A stretch of DNA of 29,203 nt from Promethearchaeota archaeon (GTDB lineage Archaea; Asgardarchaeota; Lokiarchaeia; Sigyniarchaeales; SOKP01). The DNA lies in contig JBHLPW010000057.1 in assembly GCA_048939015.1 (NCBI GenBank), positions 1-29,203 of the forward strand, in the 5' to 3' direction. Positions 9,426 to 14,641 of the stretch are shown in pieces (position 1 is the first letter of the stretch; every line of letters begins with the position of its first letter). Made by a program: the position numbers and the translations under genes. Under the pieces are notes generated by a model, which saw only the letters and a program-made list of their open reading frames with translations, did no database searches and was not told the DNA's origin.

Positions 9426-11645
9426 TTAATCTTCTTTAGAAAACTTTCCTAAGTCTTTACTAAGCATTTTTAACACTTTTTCTTCTAATTCTTCCGGAAT
9501 ATGTCGAAAAGAAAATTCCTCTAACTCTGGTAAGATATTTTGCAAAGATATTCTGGTTAGATAATCTAATTGGTCACATAACGCACATAGTTGGAAATGA
9601 GTAGAATTTTCTATTAAAACTGCTCCTCTTCGAACTGTAAAATAATTAACTTGTTGTTGGATCATTGTTTTCCGCACACTATTCCAAAGATCATGAATGC
9701 CTACAAGATAAATAGTATCATTAGAAGTACCACTTTTTTCATTTCTTAAAATGATTTCCCACGCAGAATCTTGAGTTCCAATAAAAATGGAATAAATAAT
9801 GCTTCTTTTTTTTGCTTTTTTGTCTTCGGATTTTCTAAATGTCAATCGTTGGAACATTCTACGTAGCACAGAATCTGCTGATTTTTCAATAATTCCAGTA
9901 TTTAGCATTTCTAGGTTTTGGTTTATCTCTTTTTCTAAACCGGATAAATTATATTCTTGCGCAGTTCTTAGTGCTTCTTCAAAATATAATTTTGCCTGTG
10001 CTGTTAATTTACTTTCTGCTGCTAATAATCCTTTAAGTATAACTAATCTACAAAGATCTAAATAACTCTGATTTTCTAACGCTATTGTTTTAGCTAAGTC
10101 TAAATGATTATATGCATGATTCAAGTATTCAAGATTTCCAGTTTCTTGAAAATATTTAAAATAACCTTCACCAAGTCTAATTTCAATATCACTTGCATCT
10201 TCTACTGATTGGTTCTTAAACATGATTTCTCTTTCTTCTATCAAGTTTTCAATTAATTTTCGCCAGTCATTACGTAGTTCACCCGATATTGCTTCTAGAT
10301 CATGCATAAAAATATTCCCTACGGGAGACTCAAGAAATTCTGGGTCATTTGGTAGATTATTCCTTACAAAATCAATCAAATCTAGGGAATCAGTTTTACC
10401 AGCTATTCTTTTCAAAGTAGAAAGTATATCGAGTTTATAATAAGTAGGGATATTTTCTTCCAAAAGAAGATTTTTGCACGTTTTTTCTGATTCATCATAT
10501 CTTTCAGATATAAAAAGGGTTTCAGCTATAATACTCATTAAGGAGATCCTTATAAAAAATTCCTCTTTAACAATAGGTAATTCTAATATCGCTCTTTGGC
10601 GTTTTAAAGCTTGATCATATAATCCCTGTTTAGATTCAATGACTGACATGTTTGAAGATATAACTGCATTTGTTCTTTCATCACCCATTTCCTTACTAAC
10701 CTTTAGCACGATTTCAAAAATATTTAATGCTTTTTCTAGATCTCCACTGGATTGATTAACAGCAGCATAAAAGTTTCCTACAACCATTATGATTTCTCGG
10801 TTACCTAATAGCTGACCAAAGTTAAAAACAGGTTCTATTACTTCTAAAGCTTCATTGATTTTTCCGAGAAAGTATAATCTGAAACCATAATAACCTTGTA
10901 AAAGCATTAATCCTGTTTTTACTTCAATAGAAGTTTGGTCTACCCATTTTTCTTGACTATTCTTATATAATTCTTCTAAAAGTTCATAAGAACTTAAACG
11001 AAGATAAACTTCTGCTTTAGCAATGGCTGCCTCTAATTGAATAATTAATGGAGTAGACTCAAAATCAATCCTTTTGGCTATTAAAATTAGTTCTTGAGAG
11101 GGTGCAAACCTTGCCTGTAATCTTAAATATATTGGATAACTCCAAGACAGTGGTTCATATTTAAAATTTAGGAGCTCTTTCCCCTTGCCAATAATAAAAC
11201 CCCATTTTGTTGCTAGAAAAGTTATAAATTGATTACCAGGATATTTATCTCTTAGTTCTTTCAGACATTCATACCATTCTTGAGGGGATTTCTCAAATGG
11301 TTCTGCAAGTGAAGAAAAGATACTTTTATCTTCATATTGAGCTAGAGATAAGTATAATCGAAGTTCTAAAGGAATATAACGATGAAGTCTATTCCATACG
11401 TCTGGAGCACCTTTAACACTTACTTTTTCCTCATAGTAATCTTTATGAGCTCGATATTCTCCATTCTCATCGATTACAACTACATTTATATGTGATGATC
11501 CGGAATCTGTTTGATGACCTAATCTGATTGTGTAAAGTTTACCAATCATTAAGTTTCCAGATTCGGACTTATGTATATAAGTACCAGGATTATGTGGGTC
11601 AAAATTAATTCTTTTATTGCAGATTTTACAATTAATCTCAGTCAT
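9426..11645 (-). CDS. Large protein: N-terminal putative Zn-binding domain + TPR solenoid + C-terminal longin/roadblock-like domain
   Basis: CKIC...H...H.NVVVIDENGEYR at the N-terminus; TPR-like repeats (GKINEALEV, GDLEKALNIF, GLYDQALK, AKLYFEEALRTA); C-terminal IYSIFIG... with a longin-like strand/helix pattern. SD GAGGTG 5 nt before the ATG. Confidence 0.7.
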   Translation of the reverse strand: MTEINCKICNKRINFDPHNPGTYIHKSESGNLMIGKLYTIRLGHQTDSGSSHINVVVIDENGEYRAHKDYYEEKVSVKGAPDVWNRLHRYIPLELRLYLSLAQYEDKSIFSSLAEPFEKSPQEWYECLKELRDKYPGNQFITFLATKWGFIIGKGKELLNFKYEPLSWSYPIYLRLQARFAPSQELILIAKRIDFESTPLIIQLEAAIAKAEVYLRLSSYELLEELYKNSQEKWVDQTSIEVKTGLMLLQGYYGFRLYFLGKINEALEVIEPVFNFGQLLGNREIIMVVGNFYAAVNQSSGDLEKALNIFEIVLKVSKEMGDERTNAVISSNMSVIESKQGLYDQALKRQRAILELPIVKEEFFIRISLMSIIAETLFISERYDESEKTCKNLLLEENIPTYYKLDILSTLKRIAGKTDSLDLIDFVRNNLPNDPEFLESPVGNIFMHDLEAISGELRNDWRKLIENLIEEREIMFKNQSVEDASDIEIRLGEGYFKYFQETGNLEYLNHAYNHLDLAKTIALENQSYLDLCRLVILKGLLAAESKLTAQAKLYFEEALRTAQEYNLSGLEKEINQNLEMLNTGIIEKSADSVLRRMFQRLTFRKSEDKKAKKRSIIYSIFIGTQDSAWEIILRNEKSGTSNDTIYLVGIHDLWNSVRKTMIQQQVNYFTVRRGAVLIENSTHFQLCALCDQLDYLTRISLQNILPELEEFSFRHIPEELEEKVLKMLSKDLGKFSKED

Positions 11646-11709
11646 TTTAACACCTCATCTTTTGGTTTTTAAAGAAGATGAGAGTTTTTTTAACATTCCA
11701 AATAAATCC

Positions 11710-12324
11710 TTAATCGTAAATATTAAGGAGTTTTTTACCCATATAAACTATTTCTTCTAACATCAAATCAATACCTATGTAGGGTTCAATAGAACTTGTT
11801 TCTACATAGGAATGAAAGAATTTTCCGTCACCAACTAAAGTATTAACCAATGCATTTGATACATTTCTTTCCAAATCAATTTTATTTCCTACAAGAATAT
11901 ATCCAATATTATTATGTTTGAATTTAGATTCTAAATTCATTAGTCGCAGCCAATTATTCAGGTTTTCAAATGATTCATAGCGATCAATTGAAAAAACAAA
12001 GATGTAAATATCGATATATGCTAAAACCGATTCCTGTAATATATCCAATGGATGCGCACCAGGAGTTCTTTGTCCTGCTAAATCATAACATTGGAATACT
12101 AAATCTTTATATGTCCAAGATTCAATCTCCATAAATGGAGTTCGTGAAATCTTTTTATCTTCAACCACTTGATGGCCAGAATGATTATGATTATACTCTG
12201 TTGTTTTGCGCAACATAGCTTGTACTAACGTTGTTTTCCCGACTGCACCATCTCCAACAATGGTCATTCGAATTAAACGCTTTGCGTTCTTCAATTGAGT
12301 TAAGAAACTTGATATTTTTGCCAG
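11710..12324 (-). CDS. Ras-superfamily small GTPase with Arf-like features; proposed CTG start at 12324 (ORF track starts at TTG 12294)
   Basis: G1 GDGAVGKT, G3 DLAGQ, G4 NKID, G5 ETSS. The frame is open upstream to CTG (12324-12322), with AGGTG (12337-12333) 8 nt before it. Confidence 0.85.
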   Translation of the reverse strand: MAKISSFLTQLKNAKRLIRMTIVGDGAVGKTTLVQAMLRKTTEYNHNHSGHQVVEDKKISRTPFMEIESWTYKDLVFQCYDLAGQRTPGAHPLDILQESVLAYIDIYIFVFSIDRYESFENLNNWLRLMNLESKFKHNNIGYILVGNKIDLERNVSNALVNTLVGDGKFFHSYVETSSIEPYIGIDLMLEEIVYMGKKLLNIYD

Positions 12325-12765
12325 ATGGAATACACCTATTATTTAGATAAATTAATAATTATAGAGTGATAATAAATTGAGGACGTAGTCTATGTATCTA
12401 TCAATTAAATTAAGAATATAAGTCATAAAGTTACAGCTGGTTTTTCGTACTAGTAGTAGAAACAATATTTTAATCTAAAATTTCATAGGACAAAATGGAA
12501 ATTTTTGTCAAATAAAATTGAAATCTTTATTTCATTTCATATCAATGATAGGAAGTTTTTGTGAACCTTTTGGAATCAAATGAATTTCTCTGAAATATCT
12601 TCAACCAATGATTATATTATTAATTGAAATAGAATTTGTTTAATGTAATTATAAAACTATTATAATATTGATATATACATCATAAGGTTCATAACTAGAT
12701 TAATATAATTTTTAACAAAAATTTCAGATTAATTAAGAATTATAAGATATATAGTTGAAAATAAA

Positions 12766-13311
12766 ATGATCATCGAGAGTCCATTTAATGGTAAAATTCC
12801 AAAGATTCACCCAACAGCTTTTATTGCCCCGGATGTTGTTATAATTGGGGATGTTGAAATAGGTGCTTATACTAATATTTGGTTCGGTGCAAAACTACGC
12901 GGAGATTGGGGAAAAATTATTGTTGGTAATTATACCAGCATTCAAGACAATGCGGTTTTACATTCCAGACCTAACAAATCATGTAAAATAGGCAATAATG
13001 TCAGACTTGCACATTCATGCATGGTTCATGGTTCATGTGTTATAGGGGATTATTCATTGGTGGGAATTAGTGCATCTGTTCTTCATGGTGCTGAACTAGG
13101 AATCGGTAGTGTTTTAGCTGGGGGCTCTGTTCTACGTGATAAAGCTGGAGACTTTTGTTTATACGCGGGTATACCTGCAGTAAAAAAGAAAGAATATTCA
13201 AATAAGCGATTGGATGAATTTAGTACTAAACTTTATGCGGATAATGGTCAAAAATTTAAAAATGCAGGATATGGACAAAAAATCCCGAAAGAATATCTTA
13301 TAAAGGAATAA
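12766..13311 (+). CDS. Gamma carbonic anhydrase-family (left-handed beta-helix) protein
   Basis: PKIHPTAFIAP, IGDVEIG, LRGD, IQDNAVLH, AHSCMVHG (three His ligands present). Confidence 0.92.
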   Translation: MIIESPFNGKIPKIHPTAFIAPDVVIIGDVEIGAYTNIWFGAKLRGDWGKIIVGNYTSIQDNAVLHSRPNKSCKIGNNVRLAHSCMVHGSCVIGDYSLVGISASVLHGAELGIGSVLAGGSVLRDKAGDFCLYAGIPAVKKKEYSNKRLDEFSTKLYADNGQKFKNAGYGQKIPKEYLIKE

Positions 13312-13317
13312 CATGGA

Positions 13318-13902
13318 TTATAAGATTTTATCATAGTCTAATCCATGAGAATCAAGGATTTTTTCAGTCATTTCTTTGAAGGCATAGAGAATATTTATAT
13401 TTTCTTTTGAGGAAGTTTTAACATAATCTTTTTCATTGTGATTACTAAGAAATTGTTGTATAATTAATTCATCAACTTTTTGCTTTCCCTTATTACTTTG
13501 AATTAAATCAAGTTTAGTTCCAATTAGAATTTTCGGTCGATCATGAAGATTATGTGCTTTTATCTGATCATACCACCAATCCAATCGAGTTAATGTCTCC
13601 ATACTTACTAATTCAAAAACTAAAAATATACCATCTGCTCCATCAATATAATACTTAAACAACTTTTTGAATTGTTCCTGCCCGCCAAAGTCCCAGATCG
13701 TATGCCTTACAAACGTCTCCTCTCCAGATACTATGATTGGGATGTCGTGTGTGTAAAAATCTATTCCTATAGTCATTTGAGTATTTGCATCAAAAGTATC
13801 AAAACATAACCTTCGAGCAATACAAGTCTTTCCTACTCCACCAGATCCGATTAAAACAAGCTTAAAAATATAAGTTGGACTTTCTTCTTGATGGAATGTC
13901 AT
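13318..13902 (-). CDS. Rab-like small GTPase
   Basis: GSGGVGKT, TIGIDF, WDFGGQEQF, YYIDGA, GTKLD, TSSK. Confidence 0.92.
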   Translation of the reverse strand: MTFHQEESPTYIFKLVLIGSGGVGKTCIARRLCFDTFDANTQMTIGIDFYTHDIPIIVSGEETFVRHTIWDFGGQEQFKKLFKYYIDGADGIFLVFELVSMETLTRLDWWYDQIKAHNLHDRPKILIGTKLDLIQSNKGKQKVDELIIQQFLSNHNEKDYVKTSSKENINILYAFKEMTEKILDSHGLDYDKIL

Positions 13903-14038: not shown

Positions 14039-14641
14039 CTAAAAAACTCTCCTTGTAAAAACTTCTTTATTTTCTTCAATATCAAATTCATGAAATACCA
14101 ATATTTCTTTGGCCATTTCTTTAAAAATATTTTGAATATTGATGTTATCTTTAGAGGAAGTTTTGGTATAACTTTTCACAGCATATCTTTCAATTGAATC
14201 ATTTATTAGTGATTCATCTAAAATAAAAGGATTATCCGTTTGATCTATTAAATCAAACTTAGACCCAACGAGAATTATCGGACGATCTGCAAAATTAAAT
14301 TCAACTAATTTATCATACCAAAAGTCTAAATTTACTAAACTCTCTATTTGTGTTAAATCAAATACTAAAAAGATCCCATTTGCACCATTTATATAGTAAC
14401 GGAAAAGTGGTTGAAAGCGTTCTTGACCGCCAAAATCCCAGATTGATAATCTAATCTTAGTATCTATACCATTAATTGTAAAGGGAAAATCATAAGTATA
14501 AAAATCAATCCCAACAGTAAGTTGAGTATTTAAACTAAAGGTATCAAAACACAGTCTTCGAACCATGCAAGTTTTCCCTACACCCCCGCTACCTATGAGA
14601 CAGACCTTAAAGATATATTTATACTCGTCTTCTTTCGTCAT
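14039..14641 (-). CDS. Rab-like small GTPase (tandem paralog)
   Basis: GSGGVGKT, TVGIDF, WDFGGQERF, YYINGA, GSKFD, TSSK. Confidence 0.92.
   Translation of the reverse strand: MTKEDEYKYIFKVCLIGSGGVGKTCMVRRLCFDTFSLNTQLTVGIDFYTYDFPFTINGIDTKIRLSIWDFGGQERFQPLFRYYINGANGIFLVFDLTQIESLVNLDFWYDKLVEFNFADRPIILVGSKFDLIDQTDNPFILDESLINDSIERYAVKSYTKTSSKDNINIQNIFKEMAKEILVFHEFDIEENKEVFTRRVF

Follow-up and report, generated by a model that had tools for sequence, protein, structure and literature searches.

How do the small GTPases of Asgard archaea reach membranes? These organisms have neither prenylation nor myristoylation machinery, and the membrane access of their many small GTPases is an open question (Dey et al. 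2016, PMC4917890). A gene on the minus strand of a 29,203-nucleotide stretch of DNA from a Lokiarchaeia genome (Promethearchaeota archaeon, assembly GCA_048939015.1, contig JBHLPW010000057.1; the whole stretch is referred to as the window) raises this question together with another one, namely where its own translation begins. A sequence-only reading of the window had proposed that the gene starts at a CTG codon, that this start reveals an Arf-like amphipathic helix in front of a hybrid Arf/Rab GTPase, and that automated annotation would truncate the protein. Our overall reading, to which we give a probability of roughly 60%, is that the gene encodes a CTG-started, 204-residue GTPase on the RasL side, restricted to a narrow Lokiarchaeia lineage, which would act as a nucleotide-gated switch together with a protein encoded directly downstream and would use the N-terminal helix as its output.

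A CTG codon as the start of the GTPase gene

The elements that bear on the start are listed below; SD stands for Shine-Dalgarno and ORF for open reading frame.

12333-12337, minus strand: SD-like AGGTG, 8 nucleotides (nt; tattccat) before the start codon
12322-12324, minus strand: CTG, the well-supported start codon, in frame with the GTPase ORF
11710-12324, minus strand: full coding sequence of the 204-residue small GTPase, including its TAA stop (11712-11710)
12292-12294, minus strand: TTG (Leu11), the start in a mechanical ORF list (194 residues, MKNAKR...); not the real start, with CTA, ATA, TTA or CTT in orthologs
12265-12267, minus strand: ATG (Met20), the start in database gene models, inside strand beta1

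The GTPase frame is bounded upstream by an in-frame TAA at 12345-12343 and ends with the TAA stop at 11712-11710. The AGGTG, the 8-nt spacer and the in-frame CTG were all found in place, and the product read from the CTG, (L/M)AKISSFLTQLKNAKRLIRMTIVGDGAVGKTT, has 204 residues and matches the translation that had been proposed. The database entry for this protein (P0001) has 185 residues and begins with MTIVGDG; the expected truncation by automated annotation is real and extends to a curated table, in which Vargova et al. list the ortholog TKJ23872.1 (Lokiarchaeales Loki_b32) as MTIMGDG..., without correction of the gene model and without a predicted N-terminal helix (Table S3, bioRxiv 10.1101/2024.02.28.582541).

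A search of 40 related genomes identified full-length orthologs of the GTPase in 14 genomes of the same genus, with 62-85% identity and alignments that begin at query residue 1-3. The extension proposed from the sequence alone is conserved in all 14, each of which has a start-type codon where the window has its CTG: ATG in three orthologs, GTG in two, TTG in two and CTG in seven, with CTG also in one partial ortholog. The three ATG orthologs read Met-Gly-Lys-Leu-Ser-Gln-Phe-Leu. An in-frame stop lies immediately 5' of this codon in four loci (L005, L006, L008 and L010), and GGTG or GGAG is located about 8 nt upstream of the aligned start in every one of the 14 orthologs. The combination of SD and CTG was also detected on metagenomic contigs that encode the truncated database proteins P0037 (14 contigs) and P0097, and P0003, a protein with a near-identical N-terminus, has TTG at the CTG-aligned codon.

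The stretch that follows the CTG varies as a coding sequence does. Five residues of the extension (F7, L8, K12, L17 and R19) are invariant in the 14 orthologs, and its variability by codon position, 12.5/6.2/16.2, is a coding-sequence pattern. In ten CTG-bearing sequences the ratio of nonsynonymous to synonymous variation (pN/pS) is 0.39 for codons 2-19 versus 1.04 for the 18 triplets directly upstream; selection on coding thus sets in exactly at the CTG. Residue 2 is always G, A, S, T or V in both the ATG and the CTG lineages, the set of residues after which the initiator Met can be cleaved off. When a four-base SD core precedes the first ATG of an ORF in this genome, the most common spacer is 8 nt (5.5% of ORFs versus about 1% at internal ATGs); thus, the spacing between SD and CTG is the genome's own optimum.

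The other codons at which translation might begin fit these data poorly. The ATG at 12267 would give the 185-residue protein of the databases and turn the 19 upstream codons into an untranslated leader. On the one hand, this is the only canonical strong start, Met20 is conserved, and gene callers picked it. On the other hand, Met20 falls within strand beta1 (residues 17-24 in the AlphaFold2 model), the 19 codons upstream show coding periodicity and the pN/pS of 0.39, most family members have an ATG at the upstream, CTG-aligned site, and the ATG at 12267 has no SD; we regard a start there as extremely improbable. The same can be said of the TTG at 12294 (194 residues, MKNAKR...): it is a canonical alternative start codon present in the window, but no SD precedes it, and residues 3-10, which lie ahead of it, are conserved, including the invariant F7 and L8. 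Orthologs that start at this KNAKR position had been named in the sequence-only reading as the observation that would speak against the CTG; what the orthologs have there is CTA, ATA, TTA or CTT. An ATA start at codon 4 was considered and rejected, given that K3 is conserved, that residue 2 is limited to small residues and that orthologs have ATG, GTG or TTG at codon 1. The SD-led CTG, which would be decoded as initiator Met, is therefore well supported by comparison as the true start of the gene. This start adds 19 residues missed by gene callers, comprising a predicted 13-residue cationic amphipathic helix and the first half of beta1.

Some related loci differ in organization. In one sub-lineage (L003:1480-1503; P0007, P0011-P0013 and P0017), the frame contains an additional ATG, located six codons 5' of the CTG and immediately ahead of the SD triplets (MTGVFQL-SKIPQFL...); it is a new start with a compensating role or else an artefact of gene calling. 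Tandem GTPase copies, a 204-210-residue copy followed by a copy annotated with 182 residues, are present on some metagenomic contigs (L050:1-1149 and L051:601-1815); on the former contig, the tetratricopeptide repeat (TPR) gene described below follows the second copy. This arrangement seems to reflect a duplication within one lineage.

CTG starts elsewhere in the genome

Use of CTG does not seem to be confined to this gene. Of 299 in-frame CTGs located 5' of an ORF's first ATG but after the preceding stop, 22 have an SD, versus a background of 3.9% at non-start codons (p 0.004). Three of these 22 candidates were checked against orthologs:

C115:155-1345, minus strand: ferredoxin-domain protein (L021) with an SD-led CTG; orthologs have CTG or TTG at the same codon
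C105:56665-57615, minus strand: AN1-type zinc-finger protein (L022) with an SD-led CTG; orthologs have CTG, TTG or GTG at the same codon
C91:13204-14166, plus strand: Arf-type GTPase (L052; GLDGAGKT, DLGGQ) with an SD-led CTG; TTG in seven orthologs

In the Arf-type GTPase gene, no GTG or TTG occurs until after the P-loop and no ATG until 110 codons downstream; therefore, a conventional gene model would lose the P-loop. Two further candidates, both unverified, are located at C12:101379 (LKIVIIGAGS...) and C14:16349. Genome-wide counts of the codons that follow GGTG or GGAG were swamped by coding periodicity and uninformative, and the analysis anchored to ORF starts was used instead.

Because CTG starts are backed by orthology in several genes, CTG appears to be a recurrent start codon in this Asgard genus, used in at least four genes of one genome. 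Rare CTG (CUG) initiation is known from prokaryotes (NCBI table 11 allows it) and from eukaryotes, where likewise a near-cognate NTG in good context replaces ATG, GTG or TTG. Unlike in those cases, the CTG start is here conserved across many species of a single genus. No report of CTG starts in Asgard archaea was found in the literature that we searched.

The N-terminal helix

The extension opened by the CTG contains one predicted element ahead of the G domain:

12283-12321, minus strand: N-terminal cationic amphipathic helix, residues 2-14, as predicted by AlphaFold2

The AlphaFold2 model was built on an alignment of 104 sequences and has a mean predicted local distance difference test score (pLDDT) of 87.8; for the helix region this score is 83 over residues 1-10 and 94 over residues 11-20. 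We then surveyed the N-termini of the 120 best database homologs. Truncation to MT[IV]VGDG was seen in 26 of them, and 75 have 22-24 residues ahead of G1. Most family members start with MGKLSxFLxxLKK. In the family profile, positions 4, 7, 8 and 11 are hydrophobic and the others rich in K/R, with a periodicity peak at 100-110 degrees. The net charge of the helix is +4 to +8, and its hydrophobic moment, at 0.39-0.52, is comparable to the 0.42 that the same scale gives for the Arf1 helix. The model and the conserved profile with helical periodicity agree with the proposal that the extension forms an amphipathic helix.

The sequence-only reading had also stated that the protein has no Gly2 for myristoylation. 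This holds for the window protein, which has Ala2, and for its CTG lineage, but not for the family, as 54 of 69 standard-length members begin with Met-Gly; Gly2 was lost in the CTG lineages. N-myristoyltransferase (PF01233) was not found in the genome, in a search that had no positive control.

Motifs of the G domain

The G domain is made up of the following elements:

12232-12255, minus strand: G1 P-loop GDGAVGKT, of the Ras/Rab type, invariant in 14 orthologs
12145-12192, minus strand: variable loop, residues 45-60, with HNHSGH at residues 46-51; unconserved, with pLDDT <50 at residues 48-54
12070-12141, minus strand: switch I Thr62, short beta2-beta3 interswitch and G3 DLAGQ; the spacing from Thr62 to Asp81 is 19, and DLAGQ is invariant
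12043-12072, minus strand: switch II QRxPGxHPLD, lineage-specific, with Q85, R86, P88, G89, H91, P92, L93 and D94 invariant
11875-11886, minus strand: G4 NKID
11791-11802, minus strand: G5 ETSS, matching the Rab-like ETSx

All motifs that had been read from the sequence (GDGAVGKT, HNHSGH, RTPFMEIESWTYKDLVFQCYDLAGQ, QRTPGAHP, NKID and ETSS) were found. In the AlphaFold2 model, strand beta1 is followed by alpha1 (30-44), the disordered loop (45-60) and a tight beta2-beta3 hairpin (65-72 and 75-82). Two of the motifs need a qualification. The His-rich insert before switch I is present, but it is modelled as disordered and is not conserved, and for lack of conservation a functional metal site at HNHSGH was rejected. 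Switch II is indeed atypical, but it is strongly conserved in orthologs. Judged by its motifs, G1 to G5 including the catalytic Gln, the GTPase should be catalytically complete. Its C-terminus (...KKLLNIYD, with LNLCD in some orthologs) has no Cys prenylation motif of the CC, CxC or CAAX type.

Classification of the GTPase

Is this protein an Arf with an altered G domain or a Ras/Rab-type GTPase with an Arf-like helix? Sequence profiles point to the latter. In Pfam, the Ras model scores 58 bits (cut-off 21.6), Roc 52 and Arf 34.6, and the only NCBIfam match, 'small GTP-binding domain', is below the cut-off. A profile search against the PDB placed Rab28, Rab9, Rab7, a Rho-like GTPase and M-Ras at the top (E about 1e-10), and there was no Arf among the best 60 matches. 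Structural comparison with VIA ranks Rbj (Z-score 20.4), Rab9A (20.1) and Rab32 (20.0) ahead of Arl2 (18.8), Arf6 (16.9) and Sar1 (15.7), and the Foldseek ranking agrees. The hallmarks of Arf as defined by Zhu et al. are Leu-Asp in G1 (GLDxxGKT) and DxGGQ in G3 (PMC11914678); the window protein has neither, and its GDGAVGKT and DLAGQ are invariant in the 14 orthologs.

The short interswitch is a different matter. The spacing from the switch I Thr to the G3 Asp is 19, as in the GLDxxGKT/DxGGQ GTPases of this genome and as the sequence-only reading had suggested in calling the interswitch Arf-like. Among the approximately 96 small-GTPase ORFs of the genome, the window protein is the only one of the GDGxVGKT type with this spacing; the other GDG types have 23-27. 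The family is unlike ArfL in its motifs: ArfL examples in the table of Vargova et al., e.g., NVM27612.1, have no N-terminal extension and have WDxGGQ in G3, with a spacing of 19.

For the phylogeny, 52 sequences were analyzed with IQ-TREE under LG+C20+F+G4, with the paralogs of one genome as the Arf-type comparison. The family, including its distant clusters, forms a clade (Shimodaira-Hasegawa-like approximate likelihood ratio test, SH-aLRT, 99), and the Arf-type GTPases form a separate one (98). In the best tree RasL is the sister of the family, with a support of 23. The approximately unbiased (AU) test rejects a single clade of the family and the genome's Arf-type GTPases (29 log-likelihood units worse, p-AU 0.018). 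An earlier FastTree analysis of a single genome, with the window protein as a lone long branch, had placed it among short-interswitch, non-RasL GTPases; this position was lost with better sampling and a site-heterogeneous model. The family is small, with only six clusters at 50% identity reaching E 1e-30 among 1.8 billion representatives, and its nearest relatives have in common the switch I RTPF[ML]xIE, DLAGQR and an N-terminal 'FLxxLKK' helix.

A true Arf family member of the ArfR/AArf kind whose G motifs have drifted would explain the helix, the spacing of 19, the Pfam Arf match, which begins at profile position 2 and thus covers the N-terminal extension, and the fact that NCBI names some orthologs 'ADP-ribosylation factor-like'. 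Arl2 is also the only Arf-family match, and one of few overall, that aligns from model residue 1, superposing over residues 1-200. Against this stand the Ras/Rab-type G1 and G3 in place of G-L-D and DxGGQ (PMC11914678), the higher Pfam score for Ras, the lack of any Arf among those 60 PDB profile matches, the result of the AU test and the label 'RasL' that Vargova et al. gave to the ortholog on the basis of their tree. We consider drift within the Arf family highly improbable. Rather, the G domain appears from these trees to belong to a distinct, well-supported clade beside Asgard RasL and outside the Arf clade. Only the helix and the 19-residue spacing are Arf-like, and they reflect convergent or retained features, not membership. 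'Hybrid Arf/Rab' thus describes the features fairly, as two of them are Arf-like while G1, G3 and the profile and structural matches are of the Ras/Rab kind, but membership in the Arf family is not supported.

Two tandem RasL paralogs (GSGGVGKT, DFGGQ) are encoded elsewhere in the window, at 13318-13902 and 14039-14641 on the minus strand. Their Thr-to-Asp spacing of 27 is unusually long, and their genes adjoin a MoxR-vWA pair.

The downstream partner and the operon

Three further elements of the locus are found on either side of the GTPase gene:

9426-11645, minus strand: partner gene, encoding 739 residues with an N-terminal Cys/His beta module, a TPR-like solenoid and a C-terminal domain with a longin-like order of elements
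11651-11684, minus strand: conserved stem-loop whose 3' arm covers the partner SD (GAGGTG), from RNA folds of the 64-nt intergenic spacer
12359-12402, minus strand: conserved upstream block (ATAGATxCATAGCTACTTCC..GGGATAACTTT in orthologs, also given as ..TTAATTAGGGATAACTTT), from a MAFFT alignment of 170 nt upstream in 15 loci

The partner gene lies 64 nt downstream of the GTPase gene on the same strand. It is directly downstream in 14 of 14 loci, and its products are 69-84% identical. Of 41 genomes, 14 contain both genes, and contig ends account for each of the three genomes that depart from this pattern. Neither gene is present in eight further genomes of the same genus, of which two are 100% complete, or in 16 genomes that belong to other genera. 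In the AlphaFold2 model of the partner (pLDDT 85), the N-terminal module, a putative zinc module, is rich in beta strands and has the invariant residues C6, C9, H44, H52 and H67; it is followed by a helical solenoid at residues 81-601, within which Pfam detects TPR_12, and by a C-terminal domain at residues 617-731. The elements of the latter follow each other as beta-beta-alpha-beta-beta-beta-alpha-alpha, which is the longin order. An Atlas feature search with the partner C-terminus gave weak leads only (best 0.85; a Fuz_longin_1 cluster 0.81), which we do not count as evidence. In L005, L009 and L010 the partner gene starts with TTG instead of ATG (TTG ACC/ACT GAA GTT...).

The stem-loop in the spacer was found in 11 of 14 loci, namely those in which the partner start was located by script; its loops are variable and some changes are compensatory. 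It may tune translation of the partner. The conserved upstream block is located about 35-75 nt before the GTPase start and is probably a 5' leader or a promoter-proximal element; a TATA-like element about 100 nt before the start is present in a subset of loci. Together, the block and the TATA-like element suggest a leadered mRNA, fitting SD-dependent initiation at a non-AUG codon. Further upstream, at about 12446-12466 on the minus strand, there is an inverted-repeat-like TTGTGT..N..ACACG. The upstream blocks may represent a leader or an operator in the divergent intergenic region that the GTPase gene shares with a hexapeptide-transferase gene. An Rfam scan of 11600-12800 returned only a sub-threshold chance match and none for the upstream blocks, and a scan for sigma-70 promoters and terminators was uninformative, as expected for an archaeon, and gave no terminator between the GTPase and partner genes.

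A proposed switch and its weak points

How might these parts work together? We propose that the GTPase is a nucleotide-gated switch that acts with the downstream Cys/His-module/TPR/longin-like protein. The N-terminal helix would be its output element, which one nucleotide state probably keeps bound to the G domain and the other sets free; once released, it might lie on an anionic membrane surface in the manner of Arf and Sar1 but without a lipid, or dock in the TPR groove of the partner. Both the weak CTG start and the stem-loop that covers the partner SD probably tune the amount of each protein.

By analogy with Arf and Sar1, the membrane version of this output is tentatively proposed, as an option with somewhat less than even odds. 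Its rival holds that the helix does not anchor the protein to membranes but serves the co-encoded partner as a docking peptide or as an autoinhibitory element; the nucleotide state would then control complex formation, and any contact with membranes would be made by other components. TPR solenoids typically bind short helices or peptides, and LGN, NprR and Rap, which are among the Foldseek neighbours of the partner, are peptide-binding TPR proteins. The strict adjacency of the two genes and their joint presence or absence across genomes also suit docking, as do the narrow hydrophobic stripe and the invariant K12 and R19, which would fit a specific protein interface, and the retention of the helix in relatives with long interswitches. 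However, the very high positive charge of the helix and the Met-Gly start of most family members resemble membrane-binding helices. The two versions stand close to each other, with docking a possibility that we rate just below membrane binding.

Several observations weigh against the overall reading. CTG initiation is deduced from comparative data only. The hydrophobic moment of the helix is not significantly above that of shuffled sequences (p 0.04-0.14), although the Arf1 value is not strongly so either, and the hydrophobic face is narrow, with four residues. The Arf devices linked to the interswitch toggle, namely G-L-D in G1, the second Gly of DxGGQ and the Trp before G3, are missing, and a similar helix occurs in some more distant relatives whose interswitches are long, with 25-27 residues; thus, helix and short hairpin are not strictly coupled. 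The deep position of the family is weakly supported, with 23 for RasL as sister. On the side of the partner, the longin-like assignment is one of secondary-structure order only, and a Foldseek search with the whole 739-residue model returned TPR proteins only. The complete picture, in which a non-Arf GTPase family uses an Arf-style, lipid-free, nucleotide-gated helix to reach membranes with a TPR/longin partner in a genus that regularly uses CTG as a start codon, is, taken as a whole, less likely than not.

Comparison with known systems

Three groups of known systems resemble the window family, each in part. In Arf, Arl and Sar1 and in Asgard ArfR/AArf (HodArfR1, GerdArfR1; bioRxiv 10.1101/2024.02.28.582541; PMC11914678), an amphipathic helix of similar length directly precedes beta1 and the switch I Thr is also 19 residues from the G3 Asp; the Met-Gly start of most members of the window family is a further likeness, and the Arf1 N-terminus aligns without gaps with the family consensus, as it had been aligned with the window protein in the sequence-only reading. 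Unlike Arf and ArfR, the window family has G1 and G3 of the Ras/Rab type, no Trp before G3, ETSx in G5 and a far more basic helix, and it falls outside the Arf-type clade (AU p 0.018). Asgard RasL and the eukaryotic Rabs (Rab9A, Rab28, Rab32 and Rbj) have the same GDGxVGKT, DxAGQ, NKxD and ETSx and provide the best profile and structural matches. In contrast to them, the window protein has an interswitch at least four residues shorter than that of every other GDG-type GTPase of the genome (19 versus 23-27), a 19-residue helix-bearing extension, the lineage-specific switch II QRxPGxHPLD and a C-terminus that lacks the Cys prenylation motif.

The third group consists of MglA-MglB, Rag-Ragulator and the longin guanine nucleotide exchange factors Mon1-Ccz1 and TRAPP, in which a small GTPase is likewise genetically coupled to a protein with a domain of longin order. 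Unlike in these roadblock/longin pairs, the putative regulator here is a 739-residue fusion with a Cys/His beta module and a TPR solenoid of about 500 residues, and its longin fold is assigned by element order only.

Implications

Until now, attention to N-terminal amphipathic helices has centred on ArfR/AArf, whose wide occurrence is mainly in Heimdallarchaeia lineages. Here, a Ras/Rab-side GTPase from Lokiarchaeia is predicted to have the same device. The helix is missing from about one-fifth of the database entries (26 of the best 120) and from a curated published table, because the CTG start is not considered by common gene callers. Such missed starts bias any survey of N-terminal helices, signal peptides or domain architectures in these genomes. 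Four CTG starts are verified by orthology in one genome, including that of the Arf-type GTPase whose P-loop a conventional model would omit. If the complete picture outlined above is true, Asgard archaea invented or inherited helix-mediated membrane switching in a lineage of GTPases other than the Arf clade, and Asgard gene catalogues, including curated GTPase sets, would be systematically losing N-termini.

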